Source: Acidimicrobiia bacterium (GTDB lineage: Bacteria > Actinomycetota > Acidimicrobiia > Acidimicrobiales > Bin134). Taken from it: DNA of 64,000 nt. This document shows positions 2,531 through 45,614 of the stretch, one piece after another. Below the pieces are notes generated by a model that saw only the letters and a program-made list of their open reading frames with translations, did no database searches and was not told the DNA's origin. Location: the NCBI GenBank assembly GCA_022821445.1, contig JAJEDQ010000038.1, forward strand, positions 7,312 through 71,311, written 5' to 3'. The translations under genes and the position numbers were made by a program. Position 1 is the first letter of the stretch. Every line of letters starts with the position of its first letter.

Positions 2531-2533
2531 CCC

Positions 2534-3328: not shown

Positions 3329-3343
3329 GCAGGGTGGTGGCCC

Positions 3344-10778: not shown

Positions 10779-10788
10779 TGAGGGCAAT

Positions 10789-26000: not shown

Positions 26001-27239
26001 CTACTGCCCGGCGACAACTCGCATGCGGAGGTTGTTGAGGATGGAGACGGTGGTGAATTGACGGGTGCGCTCGCGGTCGAAGGGGAACTTGACCTTGGCC
26101 GCCTCCACCTGGCCGTTTACCAGCGTGGCCATCCATACGGTGCCGGGGTCCTCCCCGTAGAGCGGATCGGGGCCGGCTACCCCGGTGACGGCGATGGCGC
26201 AGTCGGCGTCCAACAGCTTGGCAGCGCCGTGGGCCATGGCGGTTACGGCCTCCTCGCTCACCACTGGGCCCTCGGGCACGTCCAGCAAGTCGAACTTGAC
26301 GTCGCTGGCGTAGGAAACCAGGCCGCCGCGGAACACGTCGCCGGCACCGGGCACGGCGGTGAGCCGGGCGCCGATCAATCCGCCGGTGAGCGACTCGGCC
26401 AGCGCCAGGGTCCAGCCCCGGCTCCTCAGGGCGTCGAGCACGGCCGACTCCATGGTCTCGTCGTCGATGCCGAACACGATGTCGCCGATGATGCCCCGCA
26501 CGATCTGCTCCTCGTTGGCCAAGATCTCGTCCACCTCGGCCTCACTGGGAGCTTTGGCGGTGAGCCTCACCTTGAGGCCCTCCATGCCGGAGGCCAAAAA
26601 GGCGATGGTACACTCGCCGGTCTCGTCCAGGCGCTCGATCTCTTCATGCAGCTTCTCGGCCAGGCCCGACTCGGAGTCACCCCAGGTGCGCAGCGTGCGG
26701 CTTTTGATCACCGCGGTGATCCCCGCCCGCTGCTTGAGATCGGGAAGCACGCACTCCCCCACCATCTGCTGCATCTCCCAGGGCACGCCGGGCACGGCGT
26801 ACACCGCCTTGCCGCCGGTCTCCACCTTGAAGCCGGGTGCGGTGCCCGGCATCACCGACAGCACCTCGGCCCCAACGGGCACGTCGGCCTGGCGCAGGTT
26901 GTTGTCGGGCATGGCCCGGCCCCGGCCTCCGAACACCCGAGAGATGCGCTCGACGATGTCGTCTCGCCGCACCAGCTCCACCCCGAGGGCGGCGGCGATC
27001 ACGTCACGGGTGATGTCGTCCTGGGTGGGACCGAGACCGCCGCACATGATCACCGAGTCGCTTCGCTCCAGAGCCTGGCCCAGCACCGCCTGCATGCGCC
27101 CGAAGTTGTCGCCCACCTTCACCTGGTGGTGCGAGTCGATGCCCGCCAGTGCCAGCTGCTCTCCGATCCACGACGAGTTGGTGTCGACGATCTGGCCGAG
27201 CAAGAGCTCGGTTCCAACTGCGATTACTTCACAATTCAC
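26001..27239 (-). CDS. cinA: CinA family protein (competence/damage-inducible protein A; NMN amidohydrolase domain)
   Basis: 412 aa with N-terminus CEVIAVGTELLLGQIVDTNS and the C-terminal PncC-like domain. The start is GTG at 27239 with no obvious SD. Confidence 0.85.
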   Translation of the reverse strand: MNCEVIAVGTELLLGQIVDTNSSWIGEQLALAGIDSHHQVKVGDNFGRMQAVLGQALERSDSVIMCGGLGPTQDDITRDVIAAALGVELVRRDDIVERISRVFGGRGRAMPDNNLRQADVPVGAEVLSVMPGTAPGFKVETGGKAVYAVPGVPWEMQQMVGECVLPDLKQRAGITAVIKSRTLRTWGDSESGLAEKLHEEIERLDETGECTIAFLASGMEGLKVRLTAKAPSEAEVDEILANEEQIVRGIIGDIVFGIDDETMESAVLDALRSRGWTLALAESLTGGLIGARLTAVPGAGDVFRGGLVSYASDVKFDLLDVPEGPVVSEEAVTAMAHGAAKLLDADCAIAVTGVAGPDPLYGEDPGTVWMATLVNGQVEAAKVKFPFDRERTRQFTTVSILNNLRMRVVAGQ

Positions 27240-27260
27240 GCAGGGAGGCTATACCGCCGG

Positions 27261-27434
27261 CTACTCGCCCGAGGCGGCAATGGCCCCGGCTACTCGCCCG
27301 AGGCGGCAACGGCCCCGGCTATCGGCCCGCGGCGGCAACGGCCCCGGCTACTGGCCCGAGGCGGCAACGGCCCCGGCTACTCGCCCGAGGCGGCAATGGC
27401 CCCGGCTACTCGCCCGAGGCGGCAACGGCCCCGG
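27261..27434. repeat. Tandem array of six 29-bp units (CTACTCGCCCGAGGCGGCAAYGGCCCCGG) between cinA and pgsA
   Basis: Units occupy 27261-89, 27290-318, 27319-47, 27348-76, 27377-405 and 27406-34. Unit 1 equals unit 5 and unit 2 equals unit 6 (a 116-bp higher-order period); units 3 and 4 are variants. A truncated unit lies at 27247-27260. Unit 6 encodes the last 9 codons and the TAG of pgsA. Confidence 0.95.
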
Positions 27435-27987
27435 CCCGGCCGTCGGCCCAGTAGCGCCAGCCGGAGTACAGGGTGATGGCCACGGCCAGCCAGATGGCCA
27501 GCGACACCGACCAGTCGACGTTCTCCAGCGGAGGCAGTGCGGCCACGGTCAGCGCCCCGCCCTGCATCAGAGTCTTCAGCTTGGCCGAATGGCGGGCGGG
27601 CAGCGAGAGGCCGTCTCGGGCCCATCTGGTGCGTACCGCGCTCATCAGGAGCTCCCGCGCCGTGATGATCAACACCGGCACCCAGAACAGCCGGTCCACG
27701 GCCACAAAGCACCAGGCCGCCCCCAGGATCATCACCTTGTCGGCCAGCGGGTCCAAGAAGGCCCCCCAGCGGCTCTCGCTGCCCGAAGACCGGGCCACCC
27801 AGCCGTCGTAGTAGTCGCTGGCGCCCAGCACCCAGCCCATCGCCACCACCGCCCACGACGTCCCTGCGCTGTCGGAGGCAGCCAAGATCAGCACGAAGAG
27901 CACGGGCGAGAGCAGTATCCGGCCCAACGTGATCAGGTTGGCGGTCAACCGCAGATCAGCCCAGGAATAGGCCTCCACCTGGCTCAT
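27406..27987 (-). CDS. pgsA: CDP-diacylglycerol--glycerol-3-phosphate 3-phosphatidyltransferase
   Basis: 193 aa with the CDP-alcohol phosphatidyltransferase motif DYYDGWVAR...GAFLDPLADK and a multi-TM profile. Confidence 0.9.
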   Translation of the reverse strand: MSQVEAYSWADLRLTANLITLGRILLSPVLFVLILAASDSAGTSWAVVAMGWVLGASDYYDGWVARSSGSESRWGAFLDPLADKVMILGAAWCFVAVDRLFWVPVLIITARELLMSAVRTRWARDGLSLPARHSAKLKTLMQGGALTVAALPPLENVDWSVSLAIWLAVAITLYSGWRYWADGRAGAVAASGE

Positions 27988-29240
27988 GGCGATTCCGCCT
28001 CGGCCACCAGGTCGGGACCCAGGGCATCAACCACCCGCACGGTGTGGAACTGCCCGACGTCCAGATGGTCGGGCACCGAAACGACCCCGTCGATCTCCGG
28101 GGCTTCTCGATAGCTGCGGGCAATTCCAGGCGTGTCCACCAGGACTTTGACTTCGCGGCCGATGAGTTGGTCGCGCTTCGTTGCGGTGATCCCGTCTTGG
28201 ACCTCGGCCAGCTCCCGGCGACGCTCGGCGGCCAATTCGGCCGGCACCTGCCCTTCGAGGGCAGTGGCATAGGTGCCGGCCTCGGCGGAGTAGGTGAAGA
28301 AACCGCACCAGTCCAAGCCCATGTCGGCCACAAAGTCGAGCAGGGCGTCGTGGTCGGCCTCGGTCTCACCGGGGTAGCCCACGATGAAGTTGGACCTGAA
28401 CACCGCCTCGGGCCGGCGTTGGCGGATATCGGCGATGCGGGCGGCAAAGCGGTCGCCGTCGCCCCACCGACGCATCCGGGCCAGGAGCGGCCGGGACACG
28501 TGCTGCAACGACAGATCGAAGTAGGGCACCTCGGTGGCGCAGATGGCGTCGATGAGCGAGTCGGTGAGGTCGGACGGATACAGATACAACAGCCGCACCC
28601 AGCGGACCTGGTGGCGAAGCGACTCCACCAGCGGGATGATGCCCCGCTCTCCTTGGCCCTGGTCGCGGCCGTAGGAGGCCAGGTCTTGGGCCACCAGCAC
28701 CGCTTCTTGTACCTCCAGTGCCTCCACCTCGGCCACGATGGCCTCGGCCGACCGAGAGCGCTGCGGACCCCGGAAGCTGGGAATGGCGCAATACCCGCAG
28801 CGCCGGTCGCATCCCTCGGCGATCTTCACGTAGGCCCACGGCGCTTGAGCGGGCGGCCGGGGCAGGTTCAACAGGTCGAATGAGGGCAGCTCGGCCACAG
28901 GCACCGAAGAGGGCTTCGCCCCGATGCTCACCGATACCCCGAACCCGGCTACCCGGTCGACTTCGGGAAGGGCCTCGGCCAGCTCAGCGCCGTAGCGCTC
29001 GGCCATGCACCCAGTAACTACCAGTTCGGCCTCGACCGCCGAGGAGCGCAGCGCCAGCACCGCGTCCACCGACTCCTGGCGGGCCTCCTCGATGAAGGCG
29101 CAGGTGTTCACCACCACCAGATCGGCTTCTTCTGGCGCGGGGGCCGCGGCCATCCCGTCTCGGACCAGCAACCCCGTGATCTTGTCGGAGTCCACCTGAT
29201 TCTTAGGACACCCCAGCGTCTCAATCCAAAACCGGCGCAC
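27984..29240 (-). CDS. rimO: Ribosomal protein S12 methylthiotransferase (radical SAM)
   Basis: RFWIETLGCPKNQVDSDKI, radical-SAM CDRRCGYC and a TRAM C-terminus. I place the start at GTG 29240, 10 nt after the upstream stop. The track extension to 29414 overlaps the CaCA gene and reads its repeat in another frame. Confidence 0.85.
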   Translation of the reverse strand: MRRFWIETLGCPKNQVDSDKITGLLVRDGMAAAPAPEEADLVVVNTCAFIEEARQESVDAVLALRSSAVEAELVVTGCMAERYGAELAEALPEVDRVAGFGVSVSIGAKPSSVPVAELPSFDLLNLPRPPAQAPWAYVKIAEGCDRRCGYCAIPSFRGPQRSRSAEAIVAEVEALEVQEAVLVAQDLASYGRDQGQGERGIIPLVESLRHQVRWVRLLYLYPSDLTDSLIDAICATEVPYFDLSLQHVSRPLLARMRRWGDGDRFAARIADIRQRRPEAVFRSNFIVGYPGETEADHDALLDFVADMGLDWCGFFTYSAEAGTYATALEGQVPAELAAERRRELAEVQDGITATKRDQLIGREVKVLVDTPGIARSYREAPEIDGVVSVPDHLDVGQFHTVRVVDALGPDLVAEAESP

Positions 29241-29250
29241 CGTATCGACA

Positions 29251-30372
29251 CTAGGTGGAAACGGGGCCAGAACCACCAGCGCCGGCCGTCTGCTCCTCCA
29301 ACTCCACCGGGGATGGAACAGCGGGGGCAGATCCGAGCTGGGGGGAACCACCAGCGCCGGCCGTCTGCTCCTCCAACTCCACCGCCGGCGCAGGACCCAA
29401 AGCCTCTTCCTCATGGTCGGAGATCAAAAACGGCAGCGACACCAGGTACACGGCCAAGAGGAAGGCGCCCTCCCACCAGCGCTCCAAGCCGTCTCCCCGG
29501 AACATGAACAGCCAGGCGGCAACGGAGATGCCCATCATGATCCACACCGCCAAACCCGAGAGGTTCCCGTCGACCAAGGGCCCGGGGCCCACCAAGGCCA
29601 CTACCGCGCTCACCAGCAGGCTGTTGAACGTGTTGGAGCCCAAGATGTTGCCCACCAGCAGATCGGCCTCTCCCCGGCGGGCCGCCTGCACCCCGGTGAT
29701 CAGCTCGGGCAGCGAGGTTCCGAACGCCACCAGAGACAACCCCACGAATCCCGAGCCCAGGCCCACCTCTTGGGCTATGTCCACCGCACCGGTCACCGCC
29801 AGCTGGGCGCCGACCACAGTGGCGGCCAGCCCCAGCACAGTGCGGACCAGCTCGGCAGGCTGGCTTATCGGCTTGTCGGTGTGGAGCACATCGGTGGAGC
29901 TTCCGTCATAGGCCGGCCGCCACAAGATGGCGGTCATGGCCACCACGAAGGCCAGCAGCAAGACGAAGCCCTCCCAGCGCTCCAAACCGTTTTGCACCAG
30001 CACCCAGAACAACCCTGCGGCCGCCACCGACACCACGCCCTCCCGCCACAGGGTGCTGTTGGCCACCCGGATGTAGCGGCCCCCCACGGCCACTGCTGCC
30101 ACCAGGGCGGAAAAGCCCAGCACCAGGCTCAAGTTGGCCACGTTGGAGCCGACGATGTTGCCCACCCCCAAATCGACGTTGCCGTCGGCGGCAGCCAGGC
30201 CCGACACCAGCATCTCTGGTGCGCTGGTGCCAAAGCCGATAACCAGCGCCCCGATCACGATGGGCGAGATGCCCCGGGCGAAGGCCAGCCGCGACGCGCC
30301 GATCACCAATTGGTCGGCACCCAAGGCCAGCACGAGGAGACCCCCCGCCAGAAGCACGGCTGCCAAAACCAC
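29251..30372 (-). CDS. Ca2+/Na+ antiporter (CaCA family, YrbG-like) with a repeat-containing acidic C-terminal tail
   Basis: 373 aa, multi-TM, with two alpha-repeat signatures GTSAPE and GTSLPE. The tail is ...VELEEQTAGAGGSPQLGSAPAVPSPVELEEQTAGAGGSGPVST. Confidence 0.85.
   Translation of the reverse strand: MVLAAVLLAGGLLVLALGADQLVIGASRLAFARGISPIVIGALVIGFGTSAPEMLVSGLAAADGNVDLGVGNIVGSNVANLSLVLGFSALVAAVAVGGRYIRVANSTLWREGVVSVAAAGLFWVLVQNGLERWEGFVLLLAFVVAMTAILWRPAYDGSSTDVLHTDKPISQPAELVRTVLGLAATVVGAQLAVTGAVDIAQEVGLGSGFVGLSLVAFGTSLPELITGVQAARRGEADLLVGNILGSNTFNSLLVSAVVALVGPGPLVDGNLSGLAVWIMMGISVAAWLFMFRGDGLERWWEGAFLLAVYLVSLPFLISDHEEEALGPAPAVELEEQTAGAGGSPQLGSAPAVPSPVELEEQTAGAGGSGPVST
29270..29384. repeat. 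40-bp perfect duplication at a 75-bp (25-codon) period in the 3' end of the CaCA gene
   Basis: GAACCACCAGCGCCGGCCGTCTGCTCCTCCAACTCCACCG occurs at 29270-29309 and 29345-29384. It encodes VELEEQTAGAGGS twice. Confidence 0.9.
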
Positions 30373-30402
30373 AGGAGGAGACTACCGGCGCTCAGTCAGC
30401 AT

Positions 30403-32895
30403 TCATGAAGAGAGCTCGTCGGGGGCCATCAGCACCTCGCGGGCCTTCGACCCCTCAGAGGGTCCGACCACGCCCCGCTGCTCCAGCAGGTCCATAAGCC
30501 GGCCGGCCCGGGCGAATCCCACCCGGAGCTTGCGCTGGAGCATCGATGTGGAGCCAAGCTGGCTCTCCACCACCAGCCTCACGGCCTGAACCAAGAGCTC
30601 GTCGTCATCGTCACCAGCCCCGTTCGCGGCGTTCGAAGGCGCTGGGGCCAGCGGATCGTCGTCGCCGTCGCCACCGTCGGTGGTCACCGAATTGGCCAGG
30701 CTGGGAGGCGCCATCGCCGCGGCCTGACGGCGCCATGCGCCCACCACGCTGCGAACCTCCGACTCGGTCACCCACGCCCCTTGGATGCGCTGGGCGGACG
30801 TGGAGGTGGGACTCAGCAACAGCATGTCGCCCCGGCCTACCAGGCGCTCGGCACCCTGTTGGTCGAGGATCACCCGGCTGTCGGTTTGGCTGGAGACGGC
30901 GAAGGCCAGCCGGGCCGGGATGTTGGCTTTGATAACGCCGGTGATCACGTTGATGGACGGCCGCTGGGTGGCGACCACCAGATGGATTCCCACCGCCCGG
31001 GCTTTCTGGGCGATGCGGCAGATGGAGTCCTCCACGTCGCGGGGGGCCACCATCATCAGATCCGACAGCTCGTCCACCACCACCAGGATGAGCGGCATCC
31101 GCTCCTTGGGCTCGGTGTCCCCGATCCCCAACTTGCGGTCGATGTCGAAGACTCCCCGATCGCAGGCCTCGTTGTATCCGTCGATATCGCGGACGCCCAC
31201 CGAAGCCAAGATCTCATAGCGGCGGTCCATCTCCCGGCACGCCCAGGCCAGGGCGTTGGCCGCCTTCTTCGGGTCGGTTACCGGCTGGGTGAGCAGGTGG
31301 GGAACATGCTCATACTGGGCCATCTCCACCATCTTGGGATCGACCAGGATCATGCGCACCTGGTCGGGGGTGGAGCGCATCAGCACCGAGGTGATCATGG
31401 AGTTGATGCACGACGACTTGCCCGCTCCGGTGGCCCCGGCAATGAGGATGTGGGGCATCCGGGACAGGTCCATCATCACCGGCTTGGCGTTGATGTCCCG
31501 GCCGATGGCCACCTCGAGGGGGTGGCTGGCCTTGCGGGCCTCGGCCGACGCCAAGATGCCGCCCAGCGACACCACCTGGCGGTCGCGGTTGGGCACCTCC
31601 ACGCCAATGGCCTGGCGCCCGGGGATCGGGGCCAGGATGCGGACGTCGGGCGAGGCCAGGGCATAGGCGATGTCCTTGCTCAAGCTGGTGACCCGGCTGA
31701 CCTTGACCCCAGGCGCCAGTTCCAGCTCGTAGCGAGTCACGGTGGGGCCGACCACCATCCCGACCAGCTTGGTTTCCACGTCATGGGCGGCCAAGGCCTG
31801 CTCCAGGGCCGCGCCCTTCCGGGTGGCTTCTTCCTGGCTGCCCTTCTGGGGATCAGACCCATTCAGCAACTTGAGTGAGGGGAGCTTCCATTTAGAAGAC
31901 TTGGACCTCGAAGACTTGGACTTCTTGTCGCCGATGATGGTCGGCGCCTCCCACTGCGGCTCGTTGGAAGGCTCGGACGTCGGGGCGGGCTCAGGCTCAC
32001 TCCTCGGCTCGGCTTCGGGCATGGCCAGAGCGGGTTCGGGCTCAGGGGGTGGGGAGGGAATGAGCACGACCTCGGGTTCAGCCGAGGCCGCTTCCGATTC
32101 GCCCGGTTGGCCATCTTCGGCGGATGGTTCGGGATCTTGTGGCCGCGGCGCGGTACCGGTCAGCAGATCGAGGAACTGGGCAAAGGCGGTCTTGAGTTTG
32201 GCGCCGTTCACCTTGCGGGCCCACGCCCGCAACGACACCCGAGTGAGTATCACCGACCCCAAGAGCCCGAATGCGCCCACCACCAGACTCGCCCCCCAGA
32301 CGCCCATAATCGCGGCCAGCGTGCCCCCGAAGGCCAGGCCCAGCGCTCCACCCGCCCCCGTCAGCCCGTCGAGGTCTTCGATGCCCGGCCGGTCGATGGC
32401 GATGTGGAGCAGGCCGGTTACCGAGAGGAGCGTCAACGCGGTGCCAATGCCGAGGCGAACAGCCAGCACCAGATCGGCCCGAGCCGGGTCGGTGTAGGGG
32501 TTCTTGTCGAAATCGCCTGGGGTGCTCTCCTGAAACTCCTCATCGGGACGGGGACCCCGCAACAGCACGACCCCGATGGCCAATAGGGCGATCGGTATGG
32601 CGGCCCGGGCGGTGCCAATCAAGGCGCCGAGAGCGGTCCTGAGCCCCGAGCCGAACGGTCCGGCCACATCGGCCCAGAGGCCGCAGGCTGCCACCAAGCC
32701 AGCGAGGATGGACCCCACGGCGATGATGTCGGCGCGGTGTCGAGCCCAAACCGCGGCCGCAGCCTGCTTCAGCCGACTATCGGGAGAGGCTTCGGCCTTG
32801 GATTTGGACTTTGCGCTGGGCTTTGTAGGGGGCTTTCGAGCGGTTTTCGTAGCCACAACAACAACAAACGTACCATTGACAACACCAGTAACCAA
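30403..32895 (-). CDS. ftsK: DNA translocase FtsK/SpoIIIE
   Basis: 830 aa with N-terminal TM helices, a Pro/Glu-rich linker, a motor domain with GATGAGKS, and a C-terminal gamma (winged-helix) domain LLVQAVRLVVESQLGSTSMLQRKLRVGFARAGRLMDLLE. Confidence 0.95.
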   Translation of the reverse strand: MVTGVVNGTFVVVVATKTARKPPTKPSAKSKSKAEASPDSRLKQAAAAVWARHRADIIAVGSILAGLVAACGLWADVAGPFGSGLRTALGALIGTARAAIPIALLAIGVVLLRGPRPDEEFQESTPGDFDKNPYTDPARADLVLAVRLGIGTALTLLSVTGLLHIAIDRPGIEDLDGLTGAGGALGLAFGGTLAAIMGVWGASLVVGAFGLLGSVILTRVSLRAWARKVNGAKLKTAFAQFLDLLTGTAPRPQDPEPSAEDGQPGESEAASAEPEVVLIPSPPPEPEPALAMPEAEPRSEPEPAPTSEPSNEPQWEAPTIIGDKKSKSSRSKSSKWKLPSLKLLNGSDPQKGSQEEATRKGAALEQALAAHDVETKLVGMVVGPTVTRYELELAPGVKVSRVTSLSKDIAYALASPDVRILAPIPGRQAIGVEVPNRDRQVVSLGGILASAEARKASHPLEVAIGRDINAKPVMMDLSRMPHILIAGATGAGKSSCINSMITSVLMRSTPDQVRMILVDPKMVEMAQYEHVPHLLTQPVTDPKKAANALAWACREMDRRYEILASVGVRDIDGYNEACDRGVFDIDRKLGIGDTEPKERMPLILVVVDELSDLMMVAPRDVEDSICRIAQKARAVGIHLVVATQRPSINVITGVIKANIPARLAFAVSSQTDSRVILDQQGAERLVGRGDMLLLSPTSTSAQRIQGAWVTESEVRSVVGAWRRQAAAMAPPSLANSVTTDGGDGDDDPLAPAPSNAANGAGDDDDELLVQAVRLVVESQLGSTSMLQRKLRVGFARAGRLMDLLEQRGVVGPSEGSKAREVLMAPDELSS

Positions 32896-32923
32896 TGGTT
32901 TGGCCGGATAGCGGCCGGTTTGT

Positions 32924-34588
32924 TCAGAACTCGATGATGACGGGGACGATCATCGGACGGCGTCCGGTGTTGTGGTTGACAAACTGTCCGGCGGCCCGGC
33001 GCACCAGCCGCTTCAGATCGCCATCCTCCCCTGAAGCCAGGCCCTCCTCCACAGCGGCCGCCACCTCATCGGCGCCGAGCGATTCCAGATCTTTAGCCGC
33101 ATCGCCCCCCACCCAGCCCTTGCTCTCAAACCGAGGCCGGGCCAGCAAACGGCCTTCAGCGCGGTTCACCGCCACCACCACGTTGACCACTCCGTGGCTG
33201 CCGAGAATGGACCGCTCGCCGAAGAGGTCCCGGTCGTTCTCGATCAACTGCCCGTTCACAAAGAAGTAGTCCCCCGAAGTGATCTTCCCCCGGTTGGACA
33301 AACCGCTGTCGCTCAACTCGATCTGCTCGCCGTCGCGAGCAAGGACCACTCGGTCCGCGGCCATGCCCATCTTCATCGCCAGATCGGCGTGGGCAACGAG
33401 GTGGCGAACCTCGCCGTGAACCGGCACAAAGAACTCGGGGTCGGCCACCGTGTGCAGGGTGCGGAGCTCATCCTGCTTGCCGTGGCCGCTGGTATGGACG
33501 TCTAGTTGCCCGCTGTGGACCACTTCGGCCCCCCGATCCACCAGGTTGTTGATCATCCGGGCCACCCGGGCCTCGTTGCCAGGGATGGGGGTCGAGCTCA
33601 ACACCACGGTGTCGTCGGGTCCGATATCGATCCAGCGGCTGTCCCCGGTGGCGGCCATGGCCAGGGCCGAGCGGTTCTCCCCCTGCGAGCCGGTAGACAC
33701 CACGCACACCCGCCCGGGGGAATACCGATCAACATCGCCTACATCGATCACCGCATGGTCGGGCATCGTGAGCAAGCCCAGCTCCCGGGCCAGGGCGAAG
33801 TTGCGCTTCATGGACAGCCCCAGCGTGGCCACCTTGCGTCCCGACTCCACCGCGGCATCCACCACCTGCTGAACCCGGTGAACGTGGCTGGAGAAGGCGG
33901 CCACTACCAGGCGTCGGCCGGAATGGGCGGCAAACACCCCTCGAAGCACCTCTCCAACCTCGGTCTCCGACCGGGAGCTGCCGGGAATCTCCGAGTTTGT
34001 GGAATCGCACAGCAGCAGCCGCACTCCGTCGGTTCGGGAGATGGCCCCGATCCGGGCGAGGTCCGTGCGCCGACCGTCCACTGGGTTCAGATCCAGTTTG
34101 AAGTCGCTGGAGTGCAAGACGACCCCTTGGGAAGTGCGGATGGCCGAGATCAACCCGGAGGGAACCTAGTGGGTGACGGGGATGAACTCGCAGTCGAAAC
34201 CCCCGATGCGGACCCGATCATGGTCGCCGATGGGAACGAGGGTTGTGCGATCAACGACACCGCGCTCCTCGAGGCGGTTGCGGATCAATCCCAGGGTGAA
34301 GGGCGAGGCATAGATCGGAAACGACAGCCATTCCAGGGCATGGGACAGCGAGCCGATGTGATCCTCATGGCCGTGGGTGCATATGCAGCCAACGATGCGA
34401 TCGGCGCGATCGCGCAGGTACTCCAAATCAGGGAGCACGAATTCAGCGCCGGGCATGTCCTCGTCGGGGAACAGGATTCCGCAGTCCAACAGGAGAACCT
34501 CGCCCCCGCTCTCGATGGCCGCGCAGTTCCTCCCGATATCGCCCAATCCCCCCAAGAAAGTGATCTGGACCGGGTCAGCCATCGGCAC
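32924..34588 (-). pseudogene. rnj: Ribonuclease J interrupted by a single in-frame TAG (codon 141 of 555)
   Basis: ORFs 34166..34588 (HGHEDHIG metallo-beta-lactamase motif) and 32924..34153 are in the same frame; 1665 nt equals 555 codons. Translation across the junction reads EFIPVTH*VPSGLISAIRT. The TAG is at 34166-34168, at the position of the Ser in the conserved THS(I/V)P motif. Confidence 0.85.
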
Positions 34589-35468
34589 CGAGTCTTGTGC
34601 CGGCCAGCACCTCGGCAGCGTCCTCGGCCAAACCTTCAGGCTCGACGTCGAGAGGCGGGCGGCAGCGGCCGACCGGGATGCCGATAAGGCGCATCATCGC
34701 CTTGGCCGGAATGGGGTTGGGCGCTGTCAACCCCGTCTCATAGTCAAACGACGGCATGAGGCCGGCGTTGATCTTGGCCGCGGCCCCAACGTCGCCCCCC
34801 TCGAAAGCGGCGATCATGTCGGCGTGCTCGATACCGGCCCAGTGGGTGGCCACCCCGATAGCCCCAACCGCCCCCACCGCGAGCAGCGGCAGGGTGAGGC
34901 TGTCGTCGCCGCTGTACACCTCAAAGCCCTCGGGGGCCTGGGCGATGAGCGCGGCGGTCTCGGCAGGGTCGCCGGCCGCGTCCTTGATGCCGACGATGTT
35001 GGCGGCACCATGGGCCAACTCCAGCAGCGTGGCAGTGTCCACCTTGCGTCCGGTGCGAACAGGAATGTCGTAGATGAGCACCGGGAGGTCGGTTGCCGCC
35101 GCCACCGTGGCGAAGTGCTTGGCCAAGCCAGCCTGCGAGGGCCGGTTGTAATACGGGGCCACCGACAAGATGCCATCAGCCCCGGCCTCTTGAGCCCGCT
35201 CAGTGAGCTCCACAGCGGCGAAGGTGTCGTTGCTGCCCGCTCCGGCCACCACCGGCGCATCCACCGCAGAGGCGACCGTGCCAATGAGGTCGATTTGCTC
35301 GTCGTGGGTCAGCGTCGGCGCTTCTCCCGTTGTGCCCGCCACCACCAGCCCGTCGCTCCCGTTGTCAATCAGCCATTGGGCCAGCGATGCGGCGGTTTCC
35401 AGGTCGAGCGAGCCGTCGTCGGCAAACGGCGTGACCATGGCGGTGAGCACCTTTCCAAATCGAGCCAT
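34575..35468 (-). CDS. dapA: 4-hydroxy-tetrahydrodipicolinate synthase
   Basis: 297 aa with GTTGEAPTL, the catalytic-Lys region GIKDAAG, and the typical length. Confidence 0.92.
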   Translation of the reverse strand: MARFGKVLTAMVTPFADDGSLDLETAASLAQWLIDNGSDGLVVAGTTGEAPTLTHDEQIDLIGTVASAVDAPVVAGAGSNDTFAAVELTERAQEAGADGILSVAPYYNRPSQAGLAKHFATVAAATDLPVLIYDIPVRTGRKVDTATLLELAHGAANIVGIKDAAGDPAETAALIAQAPEGFEVYSGDDSLTLPLLAVGAVGAIGVATHWAGIEHADMIAAFEGGDVGAAAKINAGLMPSFDYETGLTAPNPIPAKAMMRLIGIPVGRCRPPLDVEPEGLAEDAAEVLAGTRLGADG

Positions 35469-35477
35469 GGGTTCTCC

Positions 35478-36122
35478 TTACGCGTCAGCGGCGTCGTCGG
35501 CCATCTCGGTTGCCCGATCGATCCCCAGGGTCACCAGGAGATCCTCGTGCAGCTCGAACCACACCTCATGGTATGAATCCATAGAGGGTTTCGTAAACCA
35601 ATTAAGGTCACCGCCCTGCACGCGAGACAGCGCGTTGTCGAGCCGCCCTCCATAGTGTCCGAATCGGTCGAGGGCATCGGCCAAGCGGGCGACGAGCGGC
35701 TGAACCCGCCGGTTGATCTCGGCCAGACGGGCGATTGCCGCGGCGTCGTAGTCGGAATCGGTGTGGTCGTTGAGGGTCTGGTCGCCGCGCACTTGGAAAT
35801 CGGTGCAGACCTCTTTCAACTGGGGATCCAGCACCCGAAACGACTCGTATTGCTCCTGGATGAGGGTCTTGGTGCCAGAATCCTCGATTTCGGCGGCCAC
35901 TAGACGCTCGGCTTCGGCCCTGCCCTCTCCGAGCAGCATCCACCCCTGGGCTCGCTTCCCGTCTCGGTAGCGCACCCACCCCCGCTCGCCCAGCTCGCTC
36001 AAAACTCCGGCGGCCTGTGCCGCCGACAAGCCGGTGGCCAGGGCCACAGATTCAGCGTCGGCCATGCCCTTGGTGCGCAGCGCATAGAGGACGCGCCCCT
36101 CCATCCCAAACGAATACGGCAC
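35478..36122 (-). CDS. Hypothetical protein with an N-terminal winged-helix (MarR/PadR-like) segment
   Basis: 214 aa with ...VLYALRTKGMADAESVALATGLSAAQAAGVLSELGERGWVRYRDG.... The start is uncertain: the track start overlaps the SURF1 gene end by 71 nt, and internal Met codons exist at 36104 and 36065. Confidence 0.6.
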   Translation of the reverse strand: MPYSFGMEGRVLYALRTKGMADAESVALATGLSAAQAAGVLSELGERGWVRYRDGKRAQGWMLLGEGRAEAERLVAAEIEDSGTKTLIQEQYESFRVLDPQLKEVCTDFQVRGDQTLNDHTDSDYDAAAIARLAEINRRVQPLVARLADALDRFGHYGGRLDNALSRVQGGDLNWFTKPSMDSYHEVWFELHEDLLVTLGIDRATEMADDAADA

Positions 36123-36882
36123 CAGATAAGCCTACTTCCGCTTCTCGATCCCGGTCTCCGGGGCGGCCTAGGCGGCGCAGGATGAGGGGGTAGCCAACCG
36201 CCGTGATGGTGGCGAAGACGAACCACTGCACGGCGTAGGCCAGATGCGAGCCCTCTCCGAGATCGGGCGCTGGGACGGGGACGGGCAGGTCGCCCCCTGG
36301 GGGCGACTGTGCTTGCAGTTGCACGTACACCGGGAGCAGGGGGCCATCGATCTGCTGGGACAGGCGGGCCAGATCGGGGCGGGCCATCTCGGTGAGCACT
36401 CCGCTAGAGGGATCGGCCTGCTGGAGCCCGGCGGCGGTGACCGTGGCCCGAACCAGCCCGATCACCCCCACTTGGCCAGCCGGTGGCGCAAACTCTGCGG
36501 GGCTGGTGCCAGAGCCCGCCCCATGGGGAATCCAGCCTCGGTTGACGGCCACCACCTCCCCGGATTGCAGTCGCAGCGGGGTGAGCACCCAGTATCCGGC
36601 AGACCCCTGGTAGCTGCGATTGCGGATGAGCACCTGATCCCCGGGCTGGTAGACGCCGATCACCCGGACCGAGCGGAACTCAAGGTCGTCGCCAGTGTCA
36701 TATCCACCGCCGGCCCCCACCAGATCCTGCAATTCGACTACGGGTAGCTGGCTGCGGCTGGTGATGGTGCTGTTGCGGTCTTTGCGCTCAGACAGCCGGT
36801 GGAGCTGCCAGAATCCAGCGGTGACCATGGCGACCACCGCCAAGAGCACCGCGATGTTCAGCAATAGGCGCCGGACCGACAC
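36052..36882 (-). CDS. SURF1 family protein (cytochrome oxidase assembly)
   Basis: 276 aa with an N-terminal TM helix plus FWQLHRL, central NRGWIP, and C-terminal HLAYAVQWFVFA, all SURF1 hallmarks. Confidence 0.8.
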   Translation of the reverse strand: MSVRRLLLNIAVLLAVVAMVTAGFWQLHRLSERKDRNSTITSRSQLPVVELQDLVGAGGGYDTGDDLEFRSVRVIGVYQPGDQVLIRNRSYQGSAGYWVLTPLRLQSGEVVAVNRGWIPHGAGSGTSPAEFAPPAGQVGVIGLVRATVTAAGLQQADPSSGVLTEMARPDLARLSQQIDGPLLPVYVQLQAQSPPGGDLPVPVPAPDLGEGSHLAYAVQWFVFATITAVGYPLILRRLGRPGDRDREAEVGLSGAVFVWDGGARPLCAAHQGHGRR

Positions 36883-36895
36883 GATTGGGTTCTAG

Positions 36896-37666
36896 CTAGA
36901 TATCCAGCAAAGCGTCGAGGCCGACGATGAGCCCGTAGCGCTCGGGGGCCGCCTTTACCGCAGCGAGCACGCCGGGCATGAACGATGAGCGGTCGGTGGA
37001 GTCTTGGCGGATGGTGAGGGTTTGGCCCTCGGCCCCCAAGATCACCTCATGATGGGCCACCATGCCCCTCATGCGCACGGCGTGGACTCGGATGCCGGTA
37101 GGGCCCTCTGCCCCCCTAACGCCGGACAGCATTTCGTGCTCGGTGGGATCGGGGGCCCAGTCGCCCGAGGCGGCCGCCATCTTCTCCACGGTGAGCCGGG
37201 CGGTGCCCGAAGGAGCGTCGATCTTGGCGTCGTGATGCAGCTCGATCACCTCGGCGGTGTCGAAGTAGGGCGCGGCCAGCTCGGCAAACCGCATCATCAG
37301 AACGGCGCTGATGGCGAAGTTGGGGGCGATGATGCACGCCCTCTCTGCGGTGGTGAAGGCCGCGTGGAAGCGCTCCAAGTCGCCGTCGGTGAACCCGGTG
37401 GTGCCCACCACGGCGTGGATCTGCTGTTCGGCCAGCCAGACCAGATTGTCCCGGGCGGCTTCGGCGACGGTGAAGTCCACCACGACGTCGGCGCCGGCAT
37501 CGGCCACCGCTTGGCGGTCGGCAACCGAAACCACTCCACCCGCAGACGCCCCCACGCGGTTGGGGTCCACTGAGGCCACCAATTCCAGGTCGGGGTCAGC
37601 GGCAACCGCCTCGCAGACGGTGGCCCCCATTCTCCCTCCCGCGCCGAACACCCCTACCCGGATCAT
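36896..37666 (-). CDS. dapB: 4-hydroxy-tetrahydrodipicolinate reductase
   Basis: 256 aa with N-terminal IRVGVFGAGGRMG (NAD(P)-binding) and ELHHDAKIDAPSGTA (the DapB signature). Confidence 0.92.
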   Translation of the reverse strand: MIRVGVFGAGGRMGATVCEAVAADPDLELVASVDPNRVGASAGGVVSVADRQAVADAGADVVVDFTVAEAARDNLVWLAEQQIHAVVGTTGFTDGDLERFHAAFTTAERACIIAPNFAISAVLMMRFAELAAPYFDTAEVIELHHDAKIDAPSGTARLTVEKMAAASGDWAPDPTEHEMLSGVRGAEGPTGIRVHAVRMRGMVAHHEVILGAEGQTLTIRQDSTDRSSFMPGVLAAVKAAPERYGLIVGLDALLDI

Positions 37667-37729
37667 GAACGAGACGATATAGGGCTGAACCGTGAGAATT
37701 CGGCTCAGAAAAAGAAGCGGAAAACTGGG

Positions 37730-40360
37730 TTAGCGCGGCGCCCGGTCTCGGTCGCGGCCGCGACCCCCGCCGCGACGGTGCGAGCCACCGCCCGGCCCGA
37801 GATCGCCGAACTCGTCGCGCAGCTGGGTTTCGAAGTCGTCTTCAAAGGATGCCGCCTGGGAAGGGCCGTCCCAGTCGCTGCGATCGCGGCCACCCCGCTC
37901 GTTGGAGCGACGGCCGTCGCGGCCCCCCCGGTCATCGCGGCGGTCGTCACGGCGACCCCGACGATCATCACGATCCCGGCCCCCCCGGTCATCAGACCGG
38001 CGGCTGCCGCGGTCGCGGCCTCCCCGGTCATCGCGGCGGTCGTCACGGCGACCCCGGGCATCAGACCGGCGATTGTCGCGGTCGCGGCCCCCCCGGTCAT
38101 CGCGGCGGTCGTCACGGCGATCCCGACGATCATCACGATCCCGGCCCCCCCGGTCTTCAGACCGGCGGCTGCCGCGGTCGTCGCTGCTGTCGTCACCGGT
38201 CAGCTTGAGGCTGATCTTGCCGTTGGGGTCGATGTCTTCCACGACAACCTCGAGGTCATCGCCCAGAGCGACTACGTCCTCAACCCGCTCAACCCGGCGA
38301 CCCCGGCCCAACTTGGAGATGTGTACCAAGCCATCACGGCCCGGGAGGATGTTCACAAACGCCCCGAAGGCGGTGATGTTCACCACCTTTCCGTTGTAGA
38401 CCTCGCCCACGTCGGCGGTCGGCGGGTCCAAGATCAAGCGGATTTGGCGCTCGGCCTCGTCGACCTTGTCCCGATCGGGTGAGGAGATGGTGACGATGCC
38501 GGCGTCTTGGGCGTCGTCCACGTTCACCTCAGCCCCGGTCTCGGCCTGGATCGTGTTGATGACCTTGCCCTTGGGCCCGATCACCTCGCCGATCTTGTCC
38601 AGCGGGATCTCGAACTTGATGATCTTGGGTGCGGTGGGCCGAACGTCATCGCGGGGGGCATCGATAGCCCCGGCCATGACCTCCAGAATCTTGAGCCGGG
38701 CGTCTCGAGCCTGGTTGAGCGCTCCGGCCAGCACATCGGCGGGCAGCCCGTCGATCTTGGTATCGAGCTGCAAGGCGGTTACAAAGTCGGCGGTGCCCGC
38801 CACTTTGAAGTCCATGTCGCCGAAGGCGTCTTCGGCGCCCAGAATGTCGGTGAGCGTGGTGTACCGACCCTCGTGGAAGACCAAGCCCATGGCGATGCCC
38901 GCCACCGGGGCCTTTATGGGCACGCCCGCGTCCATGAGCGACAGCGTGGACGAGCACACCGAGCCCATCGACGTTGAGCCGTTGGACGACAGCACCTCCG
39001 ACACCAAGCGCAGGGTGTAGGGGAACTCGTCCATGCTGGGGATCACCGGCACCAGCGCCTTCTCCGCCAGGGCGCCGTGGCCGATCTCCCGGCGCTTGGG
39101 GCCCCGCATGAAGCCGGTCTCCCCAGTGGAGTAGGGCGGGAAATTGTAGTGGTGTATGTAGCGCTTCTTGTCGATGGGATCGATCCCGTCGATCATCTGG
39201 TCCATCCGAGCCGTGCCCAGCGTGGTGATGTTCAGCACCTGGGTCTCGCCCCGCTCGAACAGCCCTGAGCCGTGGGCGGTCTCCACCACCCCGACATCGG
39301 AGCCCAGCGGCCGGAGATCGGCCGCGGCCCGACCATCGATTCGCACCCCGTCGTGCACGATGCGGTTGCGCACGATGCTCTTGGTGAGCGAGCGGACGGC
39401 GGCCGAGATCTGCTTGTCGGCGCCCTCCAACTCGGCGAACCGGTCGGCCAGTGCGGATGCGACCTCCTCTTTGGCCTGCGACTCGGCCTCCTGGCGCTCG
39501 GTCTTGTCGGCAATCGACATCGCCGCGGCCAGCTTGTCGGCCCCGACCTCGGCCACCGCCGCTTCCACCTCGGGGGTGTAGTCCACCTGGAGGTCGTATT
39601 CCATGGGGGGCTTCACCCCGGCAGTGGCAATGAGACGGCGCTGGAGACCCACCGCTTCTTTGATCCACTCCTTGGACCGCTCCAAACCCTCGGCCAGGGC
39701 GGCCTCATCCACCTTGGGGGCGCCGTTGCTGTAGTGCTCCCAGCCCGCCTCGGTGCCGTTGGCCTCCACCATCATGATCGCCACGTCGCCGTCGTCCAGA
39801 ACCCGTCCGGCGACCACCATCTCGAACGTGGAGTCGGCACCCTCGGCGTAGGTGGGATGGGGAATCCACTCCCCATCGGCACTGTGGGCCACCCGCACCG
39901 CGCCGATCGGGCCGGCGAACGGGATGCCCGAGATGCTCAGCGCAGCCGATGCCCCGTTGATGGCGATCACGTCGTAGGGGTTCTCCTGGTCGGCGCCGAG
40001 AACGGTTCCGACGATGTGGATCTCGTTGCGGAACCCGTCGGGAAACGAGGGCCGCAGCGGCCGATCGATGAGTCGGCACGTCAGGATGGCCGATTCGGGG
40101 GCCCGACCCTCCCGCCGGAAGAACGAGCCCGGGATCTTGCCCGCGGCATACATCCGCTCTTCGATGTCGACGGTGAGGGGGAAGAAGTCGATACCCTCGC
40201 GAACACGACGGGCAGCCGTCGCGGTCACCAGGATGGTGGTGTCGCCCATGCGAGCGACTACGGCACCGTCGGCCTGTCCGGCCAGACGACCTGCCTCAAA
40301 AGACAGGGTTTTGTTCTCGGCACCGCTGACTGCGGCCGAGACGGTGATGGCTTCCGCCAT
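37730..40360 (-). CDS. pnp: Polyribonucleotide nucleotidyltransferase (PNPase) with a ~154-aa Arg/Asp-rich repeat C-terminal extension
   Basis: Two RNase PH domains, a KH domain and an S1 domain (GEVYNGKVVNITAFGAFVNILPGRDGLVHIS) are present. The start is ATG 40360, preceded by GGAGAGGAG. The tail after ...KISLKLTG is DDRGGRDRDDRRDRRDDRR... Confidence 0.95.
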   Translation of the reverse strand: MAEAITVSAAVSGAENKTLSFEAGRLAGQADGAVVARMGDTTILVTATAARRVREGIDFFPLTVDIEERMYAAGKIPGSFFRREGRAPESAILTCRLIDRPLRPSFPDGFRNEIHIVGTVLGADQENPYDVIAINGASAALSISGIPFAGPIGAVRVAHSADGEWIPHPTYAEGADSTFEMVVAGRVLDDGDVAIMMVEANGTEAGWEHYSNGAPKVDEAALAEGLERSKEWIKEAVGLQRRLIATAGVKPPMEYDLQVDYTPEVEAAVAEVGADKLAAAMSIADKTERQEAESQAKEEVASALADRFAELEGADKQISAAVRSLTKSIVRNRIVHDGVRIDGRAAADLRPLGSDVGVVETAHGSGLFERGETQVLNITTLGTARMDQMIDGIDPIDKKRYIHHYNFPPYSTGETGFMRGPKRREIGHGALAEKALVPVIPSMDEFPYTLRLVSEVLSSNGSTSMGSVCSSTLSLMDAGVPIKAPVAGIAMGLVFHEGRYTTLTDILGAEDAFGDMDFKVAGTADFVTALQLDTKIDGLPADVLAGALNQARDARLKILEVMAGAIDAPRDDVRPTAPKIIKFEIPLDKIGEVIGPKGKVINTIQAETGAEVNVDDAQDAGIVTISSPDRDKVDEAERQIRLILDPPTADVGEVYNGKVVNITAFGAFVNILPGRDGLVHISKLGRGRRVERVEDVVALGDDLEVVVEDIDPNGKISLKLTGDDSSDDRGSRRSEDRGGRDRDDRRDRRDDRRDDRGGRDRDNRRSDARGRRDDRRDDRGGRDRGSRRSDDRGGRDRDDRRGRRDDRRDDRGGRDGRRSNERGGRDRSDWDGPSQAASFEDDFETQLRDEFGDLGPGGGSHRRGGGRGRDRDRAPR
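37733..38194. repeat. Degenerate tandem coding repeats specifying the RD/RGG-rich tail of PNPase
   Basis: Blocks such as GTCGCGGCCCCCCCGGTCATCGCGGCGGTCGTCACGGCGA recur at about 37917, 38017 and 38080. At protein level, DRGGRDRD(D/N)RR... recurs at least 4 times. The repeat also generates spurious long antisense ORFs (37778..38482 + and others). Confidence 0.85.
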
Positions 40361-40414
40361 TTTTGCTCCTCTCCGGACCACGCATGGTCCGAGCGGGCCG
40401 GACGGAGCCAGTTC

Positions 40415-40510
40415 CCAGTTGGAGAGGCCCAGCCTGACTCGGCCCCTTCAACTGGCAGCTGGCCTCTCTCTAGGCCCGCTTATCTGTTTTCTGTCGGTCG
40501 CCCGGGCGAC
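40415..40510 (-). promoter_or_regulatory. Structured rpsO-pnp intercistronic region (interleaved helices plus a 14-nt palindrome)
   Basis: CCAGTTG (40415-21) pairs with CAACTGG (40449-55). GAGAGGCCCAGC (40422-33) pairs with GCTGGCCTCTC (40458-68) with one bulge. These two helices are interleaved. A palindrome GTCGCCCGGGCGAC lies at 40497-40510, just after the rpsO stop. Confidence 0.4.
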
Positions 40511-40519
40511 ACCCGCTTC

Positions 40520-40789
40520 TCAGCGGCGAAGTCCGAGATCGGCGATGATGCCGCGGTACCGCTCAACATCGTTGTCCTTGACGTAGTCGAGCAGCCGGCG
40601 CCGTCGGCCCACCATCATCAGCAAGCCCCGCCTGCTGTGGTGGTCCTTGACGTGAACCTTCAGGTGTTCGGTGAGGTGGTTGATCCGCTCAGTGAGCAAT
40701 GCGATCTGAACCTCAGGCGAGCCTGTGTCGGTATCGTGCAGGCGACGCTTCTCGATTGTCGCGGTCTTTGACGGTAGCTTCTCGGCCAT
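40520..40789 (-). CDS. rpsO: 30S ribosomal protein S15
   Basis: 89 aa with ...[48 protein letters not shown]..., canonical S15. Confidence 0.97.
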
Positions 40790-40936
40790 CCCTACTCAGT
40801 GTGTCCGTCGGTCGGAAAAAGGGCGATTGCACTGCTCCATGTCATTTGAGGCTGTGCCTATGCCCGGGGGACCCGTTCAAGCTACCACCCCAAAGACCAA
40901 AACACCTACCTGTGCGTTGTGAGGGATACTGGAGCC

Positions 40937-41797
40937 ATGAAGGTGGTGTCCTTCGGAAGCCTCAACTACGACCTGTCTATCTGGATGGACCGGCTTCCGG
41001 ACCCAGACGAGACGTTGAGAGCCCAGCGAATGGAAGCGTTCTCCGGGGGCAAGGGGGCCAATCAGGCAACGGCAGCGGCCCGCCTCGGGGCCGAGGCGCA
41101 CATGGTGGGCTGCGTGGGCGACGACGACCGGGGCCGCTGGCTGGTGTCGGTGCTCAAGAGCAGCGGTGTGGACACCAGTCTCGTCCGCGTCTCCGAGGAA
41201 CCCACCGGCACGGCGGTACCGCTCATCACCCCGGCCGATGTCTCCATCGTCATTGTGGCCGGGGCCAACGCCAGCACCGGGGCCGCCGATGCTGACGCTG
41301 CCGCGGCAGTCATCGCCGCCGCCGATGTGCTGTTGCTGCAAGGCGAAGTGGGGGCGGCTGGGGCTCGGCGGGCCGCCCAGGCCGCCCGGTCGGGGGGAAC
41401 CGCGGTGGTGTTCAACCCCGCTCCAGTAGACCCATTCCTCGTCGAGGCCGTCATGCCGCTTGCCGATGTCTTGGTGATGAACCGAGCAGAGCAGGTCCAG
41501 ATCGACGCGATCGGCCCGGAAACAGGCCAATGCGACACGGTCATCACATTGGGCAGCCGGGGAGCCCAAGTGGGCGAGGTTGTGGTTCCCCCCTACCCCG
41601 CAGACGTGGTGGATCCCACCGGCGCAGGAGATGCCTTCTGCGGCGCCTTGGGCGTTGCCCTGGCTGAAGAGCGCCCCCTTGTCGAAGCCGTCCGCTTCGC
41701 CAATGCCGCCGGCGCCCTCGCCGTGGCCACCCCCGGCGCTCAACCCTCCATGCCCACGAGGGCCGACGTCGAGACACTGCTCGACAGCCACCGCTAG
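40937..41797 (+). CDS. rbsK: Ribokinase / PfkB family carbohydrate kinase
   Basis: MKVVSFGSLNYDL..., GGKGANQA, and C-terminal DPTGAGDAFCGAL (the PfkB signature). The ATG at 40937 is preceded by GGAG. The track start is GTG 40919. Confidence 0.8.
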   Translation: MKVVSFGSLNYDLSIWMDRLPDPDETLRAQRMEAFSGGKGANQATAAARLGAEAHMVGCVGDDDRGRWLVSVLKSSGVDTSLVRVSEEPTGTAVPLITPADVSIVIVAGANASTGAADADAAAAVIAAADVLLLQGEVGAAGARRAAQAARSGGTAVVFNPAPVDPFLVEAVMPLADVLVMNRAEQVQIDAIGPETGQCDTVITLGSRGAQVGEVVVPPYPADVVDPTGAGDAFCGALGVALAEERPLVEAVRFANAAGALAVATPGAQPSMPTRADVETLLDSHR

Positions 41798-42906
41798 CCG
41801 CCGCTGAGGGCGGGCATCACGTGGGTGGCGGTGAGGCGAAGGCTCTCCATAACTTTGTCGTGGGGGATGGCGTAAGGGTTCATCATGCACAACAGCAGGT
41901 CGACGCCGAGGTCGGCGAAGCCCTGGCATAGCTCGATGCACTGGTCGGGGTCACCCGCTATGGCCACGCCCTGTTCCACTAGCTCCTCGATGCTGAACGT
42001 GGTGTCCCAATCGGCTTCCGCGGTCATTCCGGGGAGATACCGCAAGTAGTTCCAGTCGCCGAGATCGGCGCCCTCTTCCTGGAGCATCTCGGCCACGCTG
42101 CCCACCAGCTTGAATGCCACCGTGGGATACCACCAGAACGATTCTCGGGCGTTCTCGTAGGCCTCGGCCGTGGTGGGTGCGCAGTGAAACATGGCGAAGG
42201 TGGCCACCCGGTCGTTCACATAGCCGCCCACCGGATTCTGGCAGGCCTCCACCGCCTCGCGGTACAGGTCAACCCGCAGGGCCAACTCCTCCAGCGATAC
42301 CCCCGCGCTGAATGAGAGCAAGCCCATTCCCATCTCCCCCACCAGTTGATGGGTCTCGCGGCTGCCGGTGGCGGCCCACAGGGGAGGATGGGGCTTCTGC
42401 ACCGGCTTGGGCAATACCCGACGGCGGGGCATCGACCAATGCTGACCCTGGAACTCATGCTCGTCGTTCAGCCAGCAGCCGGCGATGTGCTCGACCGCCT
42501 CAGCCCACATGGCCCTGGTCTCCCGGGGGTCGATCCCGAATCCCTCGAGCTCGGCTCGGGTAGTGGAGCGGCCGGTGCCGAACTCCACCCGCCCCCCGCT
42601 GATCACATCCAGCGTGGCGGCCGACTCGGCGCTGCGAACCGGGTGGTTGTAAGGCTTGGGCGTCAAGCGCACGCCATAGCCCAACCGAATCCGCTCGGTG
42701 AGCGCGGCCACCGCCCCGTAGAGCACCTCGGGATTGGAGCTGTGGGACATCTCCTCCAGAAAGTGGTGCTCGACCGTCCAAAAGCTGTGATACCCGAGTT
42801 GGTCGGCCAGCACTGCCTGCTGGATGAGCTCCTTGTACCGAAGCTGCTCGCTTTCGTGGTGCCACGGCCGAGGTACGGGAATCTCCGAGAAAAGAGCTAA
42901 CTCCAT
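41794..42906 (-). CDS. LLM-class (luciferase-like) flavin-dependent oxidoreductase
   Basis: 370 aa with the N-terminal pattern ...LADQLGYHSFWTVEHHF... and GRVEFGTGRS, typical of luciferase-like monooxygenases. Confidence 0.75.
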   Translation of the reverse strand: MELALFSEIPVPRPWHHESEQLRYKELIQQAVLADQLGYHSFWTVEHHFLEEMSHSSNPEVLYGAVAALTERIRLGYGVRLTPKPYNHPVRSAESAATLDVISGGRVEFGTGRSTTRAELEGFGIDPRETRAMWAEAVEHIAGCWLNDEHEFQGQHWSMPRRRVLPKPVQKPHPPLWAATGSRETHQLVGEMGMGLLSFSAGVSLEELALRVDLYREAVEACQNPVGGYVNDRVATFAMFHCAPTTAEAYENARESFWWYPTVAFKLVGSVAEMLQEEGADLGDWNYLRYLPGMTAEADWDTTFSIEELVEQGVAIAGDPDQCIELCQGFADLGVDLLLCMMNPYAIPHDKVMESLRLTATHVMPALSGG

Positions 42907-42914
42907 ACCAGTCA

Positions 42915-43006
42915 GTGGGAAGGCTCGGCCATCAAGATCTCCCGGGAGAGGAGAATGAGCTTCATGGCTTTTGGTGGGAAGGTTCCGCCATCAAGATCTC
43001 CCGGGA
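42915..43006. repeat. 33-bp duplication of the ribF 3' end (31/33 identical) at a 59-bp offset
   Basis: GTGGGAAGGCTCGGCCATCAAGATCTCCCGGGA at 42915-42947 versus GTGGGAAGGTTCCGCCATCAAGATCTCCCGGGA at 42974-43006. Both encode SREILMAEPSH on the minus strand. The downstream copy is immediately followed by TGA (42912-14), 5 nt before the LLM gene ATG. Confidence 0.9.
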
Positions 43007-43990: not shown

Positions 43991-43996
43991 CGGCCC

Positions 43997-44869: not shown

Positions 44870-44934
44870 TGGTCGATGACCGCCAGTCCGTCGACGGCAC
44901 TCCCGCTCATTGGTCGATGACCGCCAGTCCGTCG
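44831..44934. repeat. 41-bp tandem repeat (2.5 copies) spanning the rbfA stop and truB start
   Basis: Copies at 44831-44871, 44872-44912 and a partial copy at 44913-44934; copies A and B differ at 2 of 41 positions. On the minus strand the array forms a chain: rbfA TGA overlaps GTG (GTGA), then a 12-codon ORF VSASDGLAVIDQ, then ATGA, then a 14-codon ORF MSGSAVDGLAVIDQ, then ATGA, then truB. Confidence 0.95.
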
Positions 44935-44941
44935 GAAGCGC

Positions 44942-45316: not shown

Positions 45317-45318
45317 GG

Positions 45319-45612: not shown

Positions 45613-45614
45613 CG

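Follow-up and report, generated by a model that had tools for sequence, protein, structure and literature searches.

One in-frame amber codon in an otherwise ordinary RNase J gene of a sponge-associated Acidimicrobiia assembly

A 64,000-nucleotide stretch of contig JAJEDQ010000038.1 (assembly GCA_022821445.1), hereafter the window, carries an RNase J gene that is broken by one in-frame TAG, placed directly after a histidine of the catalytic site. We asked whether this codon is a mutation carried by the sampled cells, a mistake in the consensus, the mark of a gene on its way out, or a stop that the cell tolerates. The gene belongs to a Candidatus Poriferisocius-like (Acidimicrobiia), sponge-associated metagenome-assembled genome (MAG). 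A literature search left the sample accession unmatched and returned the name 'Poriferisocius' only from one coral-microbiome study, present as a preprint and as a journal article.

A standard RNase J frame with one interrupted codon

The complete rnj reading frame lies on the minus strand at 32924..34582 and holds 552 sense-codon positions and a terminal TGA, with one interruption, as judged from translation and from matches to Pfam, TIGR00649 and the PDB. Translation of 34588..32924 contains a single internal stop, after which the frame is open to the TGA at 32924, and the open reading frame listing gives two co-linear pieces in a shared frame (34166..34588 and 32924..34153), just as the original prediction described them. 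The normal RNase J size that it assigned to the joined frame also stands, as the frame is full length in homologues, but its count of 555 codons does not. All relatives begin MADPVQ... (MADPVQITFLGG...), which corresponds to the ATG at 34582 and not to the GTG at 34588; because every relative starts at the equivalent of this ATG, the real start is almost certainly there, giving 552 aa plus a stop. This is the length of nearly every homologue, with no change in rnj length relative to orthologues.

The joined translation matches Lactamase_B (PF00753/PF12706), RNase_J_b_CASP (PF22505, E = 1.4e-44), RMMBL (PF07521) and RNase_J_C (PF17770) in Pfam, which is the metallo-beta-lactamase, beta-CASP, RMMBL and C-terminal domain architecture of an RNase J. 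It passes the curated family cutoff of TIGR00649 (443.5 bits against 400) along the whole model (positions 1-546 of 546). Against NF047419, the model for RNase J1 (RnjA), it scores 500 where the cutoff is 820, and the protein is therefore not of the Bacillus J1 type. Alignments to solved structures run from end to end, with E = 1.6e-131 over residues 5-551 for Streptomyces coelicolor RNase J (PDB 5a0t), E = 7.6e-118 for Bacillus subtilis J1 (3zq4) and E = 4.3e-112 for the Mycobacterium tuberculosis enzyme (7wnt). Together, the Pfam, TIGR00649 and PDB matches bear out the RNase J identity first proposed for this locus. The four-domain architecture and the catalytic motifs are common to the window gene and to the RNase J of S. 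coelicolor (5a0t/5a0v) and M. tuberculosis (7wnt/7wnu): HGHEDH, His138, Asp160, DSTN, HTSGH and PVHGE all align with the solved structures. HGHEDH, the HxHxDH element (metallo-beta-lactamase motif II) that had been noted from the translation, is intact at residues 70-75 (34358..34375, minus strand) in both the translation and the structure alignment, and the 413 codons downstream of the interruption (32924..34165, minus strand) supply, by Pfam and structure alignment, the motif IV Asp160 (34103..34105), the beta-CASP domain, the RMMBL and the C-terminal domain.

The interruption itself is an amber TAG at codon 139 (34166..34168, minus strand), altered at 34167, where the coding strand has A and the plus strand T. 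Re-reading of the minus strand confirmed both the codon and its frame: ...GTC ACC CAC TAG GTT CCC TCC GGG TTG ATC..., that is, ...CEFIPVTH*VPSGLISAIRT.... The CAC before the stop (34169..34171, minus strand) encodes His138, the motif III histidine, which lies opposite residue 148 of the M. tuberculosis chain (7wnt_A His148). In that enzyme, Zn-1 is bound by His81, His83 and His148, and Zn-2 by Asp85, His86 and His397 (PMC10119312), making His138 the equivalent of a Zn-1 ligand. In three solved RNase J structures, the stop is aligned opposite the Ser of H-S-[IVT]-P; the S. coelicolor and M. tuberculosis enzymes have Ser after the Zn-1 His, whereas the window has TAG at codon 139. An uninterrupted frame with Ser after the motif III His is thus not what the window holds, since 34168..34166 reads TAG.

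This serine is invariant among the sequences compared. It follows the motif III His in all 119 protein homologues that cover the region and in all 79 metagenome loci (36-85% identity), 198 of 198 homologues in total, and the local motif among the protein homologues is THS[VI]P, followed by S/G/R/Q and then G. The lineage of the window gene, intact relatives included, has H-S-V-P-S/G-G, in contrast to H-S-I/T-P-D in S. coelicolor and M. tuberculosis RNase J; because intact relatives carry the same motif, P-S-G in place of P-D is a clade trait and not damage. Structure alignments, the ligand list and the homologue counts therefore agree with the original placement of the stop directly 3' of a metal-ligand His, and the orthologue alignment confirms that the residue replaced is the conserved Ser. 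At the codon level, the site reads TCG in relatives L003-L007 (of which L006 and L007 carry one identical rnj gene) and in the genome_contigs matches L008-L011, and TCT in L002. With TCG in the closest relatives, the lesion amounts to one C-to-A transversion, at 34167 (G-to-T on the plus strand), the very change that had been proposed; it would have turned the invariant Ser139 codon TCG into TAG. By its sequence this locus is rnj; the frame in the window, however, does not encode a complete RNase J.

Near-identical public assemblies and the age of the lesion

A near-identical public counterpart of the locus is found in a 23 kb contig of a sponge metagenome (L005; ENA ERZ23491296, KELL22-1_SAMN22237342_METAG-scaffold_1801, sample SAMN22237342, protein P0123). 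This contig is colinear with window 39234..26924 over 12,311 of 12,311 nt, with the same gene order, 8 mismatches and no gaps (99.935% identity). Across rnj, 1,658 of 1,659 nt are identical, and the sole difference is at 34167, where L005 reads TCG (Ser). Of the remaining seven, two lie in the repeat-encoded tail of pnp (D775A and one synonymous change), four form a cluster in a TrmB-like gene (S81D, P82S and one synonymous change) and one is ftsK M772V. L016, a further contig of that ENA assembly, differs from window 46216..39180 by four transitions, all within 43 nt of ribF, bringing to 12 the sites at which the window departs from the SAMN22237342 assembly, over about 19.3 kb. Eight of the 12 fall in two tight clusters, 35868-35882 (4 nt in 15 bp) and 43232-43274 (4 transitions, 43 bp), situated in the TrmB-like gene (35478..36122) and in ribF, respectively, which look like alternative haplotypes of a mixed population and not like errors. 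Since these eight sites are haplotype-like, real microdiversity separates the assemblies and explains most of their differences; the assemblies differ mainly by such variant clusters, and the TAG is an isolated singleton among them. In addition, L019, a Logan contig from run SRR16351691, matches window 39180..41925 at 100% identity and ends short of rnj, and neighbour-gene look-ups with DapA and S15 gave the same ENA sample and the same Logan contig. Given its near-identity to L005, L016 and L019, the window comes from one species-level population with these public assemblies of sponge metagenomes.

The TAG allele was seen in none of them. A search with the exact flanks and N at the variable site returned four matches in genome_contigs, all with C, and none in metagenome_contigs. 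The NCBI-deposited contig of 71,792 nt has the same TAG, with the gene called as a 138-aa and a 409-aa protein; as both fragments are on record at NCBI, the TAG is already part of the deposited MAG and did not arise during preparation of the window. No second pair of 138 and 409 aa occurs in four clusters of close homologues. Exact look-ups with the two window fragments and with its haplotype-specific TrmB-like protein matched no indexed contig. One 409-aa homologue (P0092), equal in length to the C-terminal fragment of the window, was considered as a recurrent split and rejected: in its source (L001; ENA ERZ23492359 scaffold_4478), dapA is joined straight into the interior of rnj within 250..600, with an N-gap at ~569..578, and the site reads CAC TCG GTT. 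The N-gap and misjoin have thus created a spurious 409-aa RNase J in the protein database.

Downstream of the stop, 1.24 kb of rnj show 0 differences from the intact L005 allele, in keeping with the original remark that the 3' 1.2 kb is undecayed. Measured against the other relatives, which are 89-95% identical in nucleotide sequence, dN/dS is 0.03-0.16 for the part before the stop and 0.11-0.16 for the part after it, a range that matches values between intact genes, and neither the alignment of relatives nor dN/dS revealed a second lesion or relaxed selection in the window gene. The multiple lesions and the dN/dS approaching 1 of a decaying pseudogene are thus not seen. Three further close clusters, with complete Candidatus Poriferisocius chromosomes among their members, retain a 552-aa rnj almost throughout; a few entries are shorter, with lengths that do not make up a 138 + 409 aa pair. 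By these comparisons, the lesion is a singleton, evolutionarily unfixed, in an otherwise ordinary full-length rnj.

The public assemblies of this strain or of a close one are interrupted within pnp, with L005 starting at 39234 and L016 and L019 ending at 39180, and scaffold L002 has a 100-N gap (6368..6467) in the pnp tail repeat (window 38095..38178), because of which its gene calls show no PNPase. The window contig spans both break points (about 39180..39234 and 38095..38178). Its pnp (37730..40381, minus strand) encodes a PNPase of 883 aa, in which the S1 domain ends at residue 725 and is followed by an Arg/Asp-rich tail of ~150 aa (DRGGRDRDDRRDRRDDRR..., window 37730..38230, minus strand), which a 69-nt tandem repeat encodes (37983..38125; 2.1 copies, 91% match). 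The tail varies in length, as the PNPases of relatives have 823, 856 and 868 aa, and two of the eight differences between the window and L005 fall within it.

Origin of the stop codon

TAG is an ordinary stop in this genome. Among ORFs of at least 100 aa in the window, TGA ends 31, TAG 19 and TAA 4 (about 19/54 TAG), in a crude tiling that took long ORFs of high third-position GC (GC3) irrespective of homology. Genome-wide reassignment of TAG was considered for a run of same-frame, TAG-ended ORFs at 2075..4228 on the plus strand (2075-2530, 2534-3328 and 3344-4228, spaced by 3 and 15 nt) and rejected, as these are three separate genes, SnoaL_4, SDR and BKACE, arranged head to tail in one frame, each Pfam-complete and each ending in TAG. 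That three Pfam-complete genes end in this codon shows that TAG terminates in the window organism. A search for tRNA genes with ARAGORN in the 64-kb window found none. Elsewhere in the window, three consecutive ORFs of 348, 875 and 260 aa (7112..11571, plus strand) have no Pfam match, and third-position GC is 0.64 for the 875-aa ORF against 0.8-0.9 in neighbouring genes; this stretch may be an acquired island.

Could the TAG be tolerated, through read-through or recoding (by a suppressor tRNA or with pyrrolysine), or through reinitiation at the TTG at 34153, with the two pieces reassembling into an active split enzyme? The split lies near the junction of the two halves of the metallo-beta-lactamase fold, the TTG (34151..34153, minus strand), which is the only nearby in-frame start and would open a hypothetical 409-aa product, is placed 12 nt after the stop, and the downstream 1.24 kb is undecayed. 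A young lesion fully explains this undecayed 3' part, however, by its identity to the intact allele, and no GGAGG-type Shine-Dalgarno sequence precedes the TTG (CGTCACCCACTAGGTTCCCTCCGGG|TTG). TAG is neither avoided as a terminator, given the 19 of 54 tiled ORFs and the three Pfam-complete genes, nor recurrent at the site in relatives, none of which has a stop or a split there; Ser occupies the position in every homologue, the one other 409-aa fragment (P0092) is an N-gap artefact with TCG, and the window lacks a tRNA gene. With TAG a normal terminator, Ser invariant and TCG in a near-identical strain, recoding or read-through has no support, and we regard a tolerated TAG as very improbable. 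If a two-piece RNase J were real, it would be a naturally split beta-CASP nuclease caught as it originates. Slimmer still are the chances of an established pseudogene, in which RNase J is being lost from a symbiont lineage by reductive evolution. Gene loss is common among symbionts of the sponge-associated type to which the organism belongs, and RNase J is dispensable in some actinobacteria (PMC9312406), but the gene has one lesion only and otherwise 0 differences from the intact allele in 1,659 nt, its dN/dS against other relatives is as among intact genes, and a 552-aa rnj is retained by almost all members of the close clusters, complete Ca. Poriferisocius genomes among them. An old pseudogene is excluded by the identity to the intact allele and the purifying dN/dS. 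The intact codon in L005 therefore leaves a one-off recent mutation or a consensus error, and not a new biological feature. Thus, among the four alternatives raised by the original prediction, read-through finds no support, while recent mutation or population polymorphism and consensus error both survive.

Between these two, we somewhat favour a real, very young nonsense allele that was present in the sampled population and written into the consensus by the assembler, at slightly better than even odds. The TAG is one of ~12 differences from the L005 assembly over 19.3 kb, most of which are clearly haplotypic. Short-read assemblies carry consensus substitution errors at rates far below the ~3-6 x 10^-4 per nt by which these assemblies differ, and it is because microdiversity here is far commoner than usual short-read consensus error rates that the real-allele reading is preferred. 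Nor is the assembly generally error-ridden, as gene lengths and domain coverage are normal: in the syntenic stretch from truB (~44.9 kb) to miaB (~22 kb), the ORFs are as long as their orthologues in L002 and L004-L006, barring a few differences in called starts (for example, DapA 297 aa, DapB 256 aa, RecA 346 aa, CinA 412 aa and PgsA 193 aa), and all Pfam-matched genes tested span their profiles fully, leaving rnj as the only visibly broken gene. The other reading, by which the organism has TCG and an intact RNase J, and the A arose from low coverage, oxidative G-to-T damage or the path chosen by the assembler, is quite possible, at somewhat less than even odds. It accounts for a change that is a singleton apart from the haplotype-like clusters, that occurs in no other assembly reached and that sits in an rnj otherwise 100% identical to one with TCG in a public sponge-metagenome assembly. 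G-to-T is moreover a classic oxidative-damage (8-oxoG) artefact of library preparation, which the C-to-A/G-to-T type of the change fits. The change also strikes an invariant residue, and purifying selection would be expected to weed out a nonsense codon at such a residue in a gene kept at exactly 552 aa in dozens of relatives. About 2.3% of random substitutions in rnj create a stop, so a stop from one unselected error among a handful is not improbable. Set against a consensus error are the rarity of such errors relative to the differences between assemblies and the undamaged state of the other window genes.

Possible RNase J loss in the carrier lineage

If the TAG is real, ribosomes would halt after His138 and release a 138-aa piece (34169..34582, minus strand) that holds HxHxDH and the motif III His and corresponds to the first half of the metallo-beta-lactamase domain, with a partial Lactamase_B match in Pfam. 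A 409-aa product started at TTG 34153 would be without motifs II and III. The products would presumably be inactive and the carrier lineage RNase J-null or nearly so.

The rnj gene is closely packed with its neighbours. The stop of the upstream dapA (DHDPS; 34575..35468, minus strand) overlaps the rnj start ATG by 8 nt, in an order conserved in relatives, and ftsK (30403..32895, minus strand), assigned by Pfam and synteny, follows 28 nt after the rnj stop. With a real TAG, the ~1.24 kb of untranslated mRNA before ftsK might cause polarity. Further upstream, between SURF1 and dapA, the TrmB-like gene (35478..36122, minus strand) is conserved at 208-214 aa and unannotated in the loci of all relatives; Pfam yields for it only a TrmB-type helix-turn-helix match that fails the cutoff (E = 6.7e-4).

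By analogy with mycobacteria, the carriers could survive the loss, since actinobacteria equipped with RNase E as well can dispense with RNase J. In mycobacteria, which have both enzymes, RNase J is non-essential, and isoniazid-resistant M. tuberculosis isolates carry four independent nonsense and two frameshift rnj alleles (PMC9312406), so that the original view of RNase J loss as notable was overstated. The window TAG and the loss alleles of M. tuberculosis rnj (Rv2752c) have in common that they include nonsense lesions in an actinobacterial rnj; however, the M. tuberculosis alleles were verified in cultured isolates and linked to drug tolerance (PMC9312406), whereas the window allele is known from a MAG consensus only.

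We conclude that a standard rnj carries either an ordinary single-base nonsense lesion or a miscalled base, which amounts to neither a new system nor a new variant; it matters little past annotation, and neither outcome raises a new mechanistic question. If the base is an error, the deposited MAG is wrongly without an intact rnj, and its 138-aa and 409-aa calls would mislead surveys of pathways and gene loss. If the base is real, it would record a natural RNase J-null variant of an uncultured sponge symbiont and give actinobacteria a second example, after the clinical M. tuberculosis alleles, of cells doing without rnj in nature. Such a case would also point to harmful alleles rising, in populations confined to a host, to frequencies at which an assembler picks them up.
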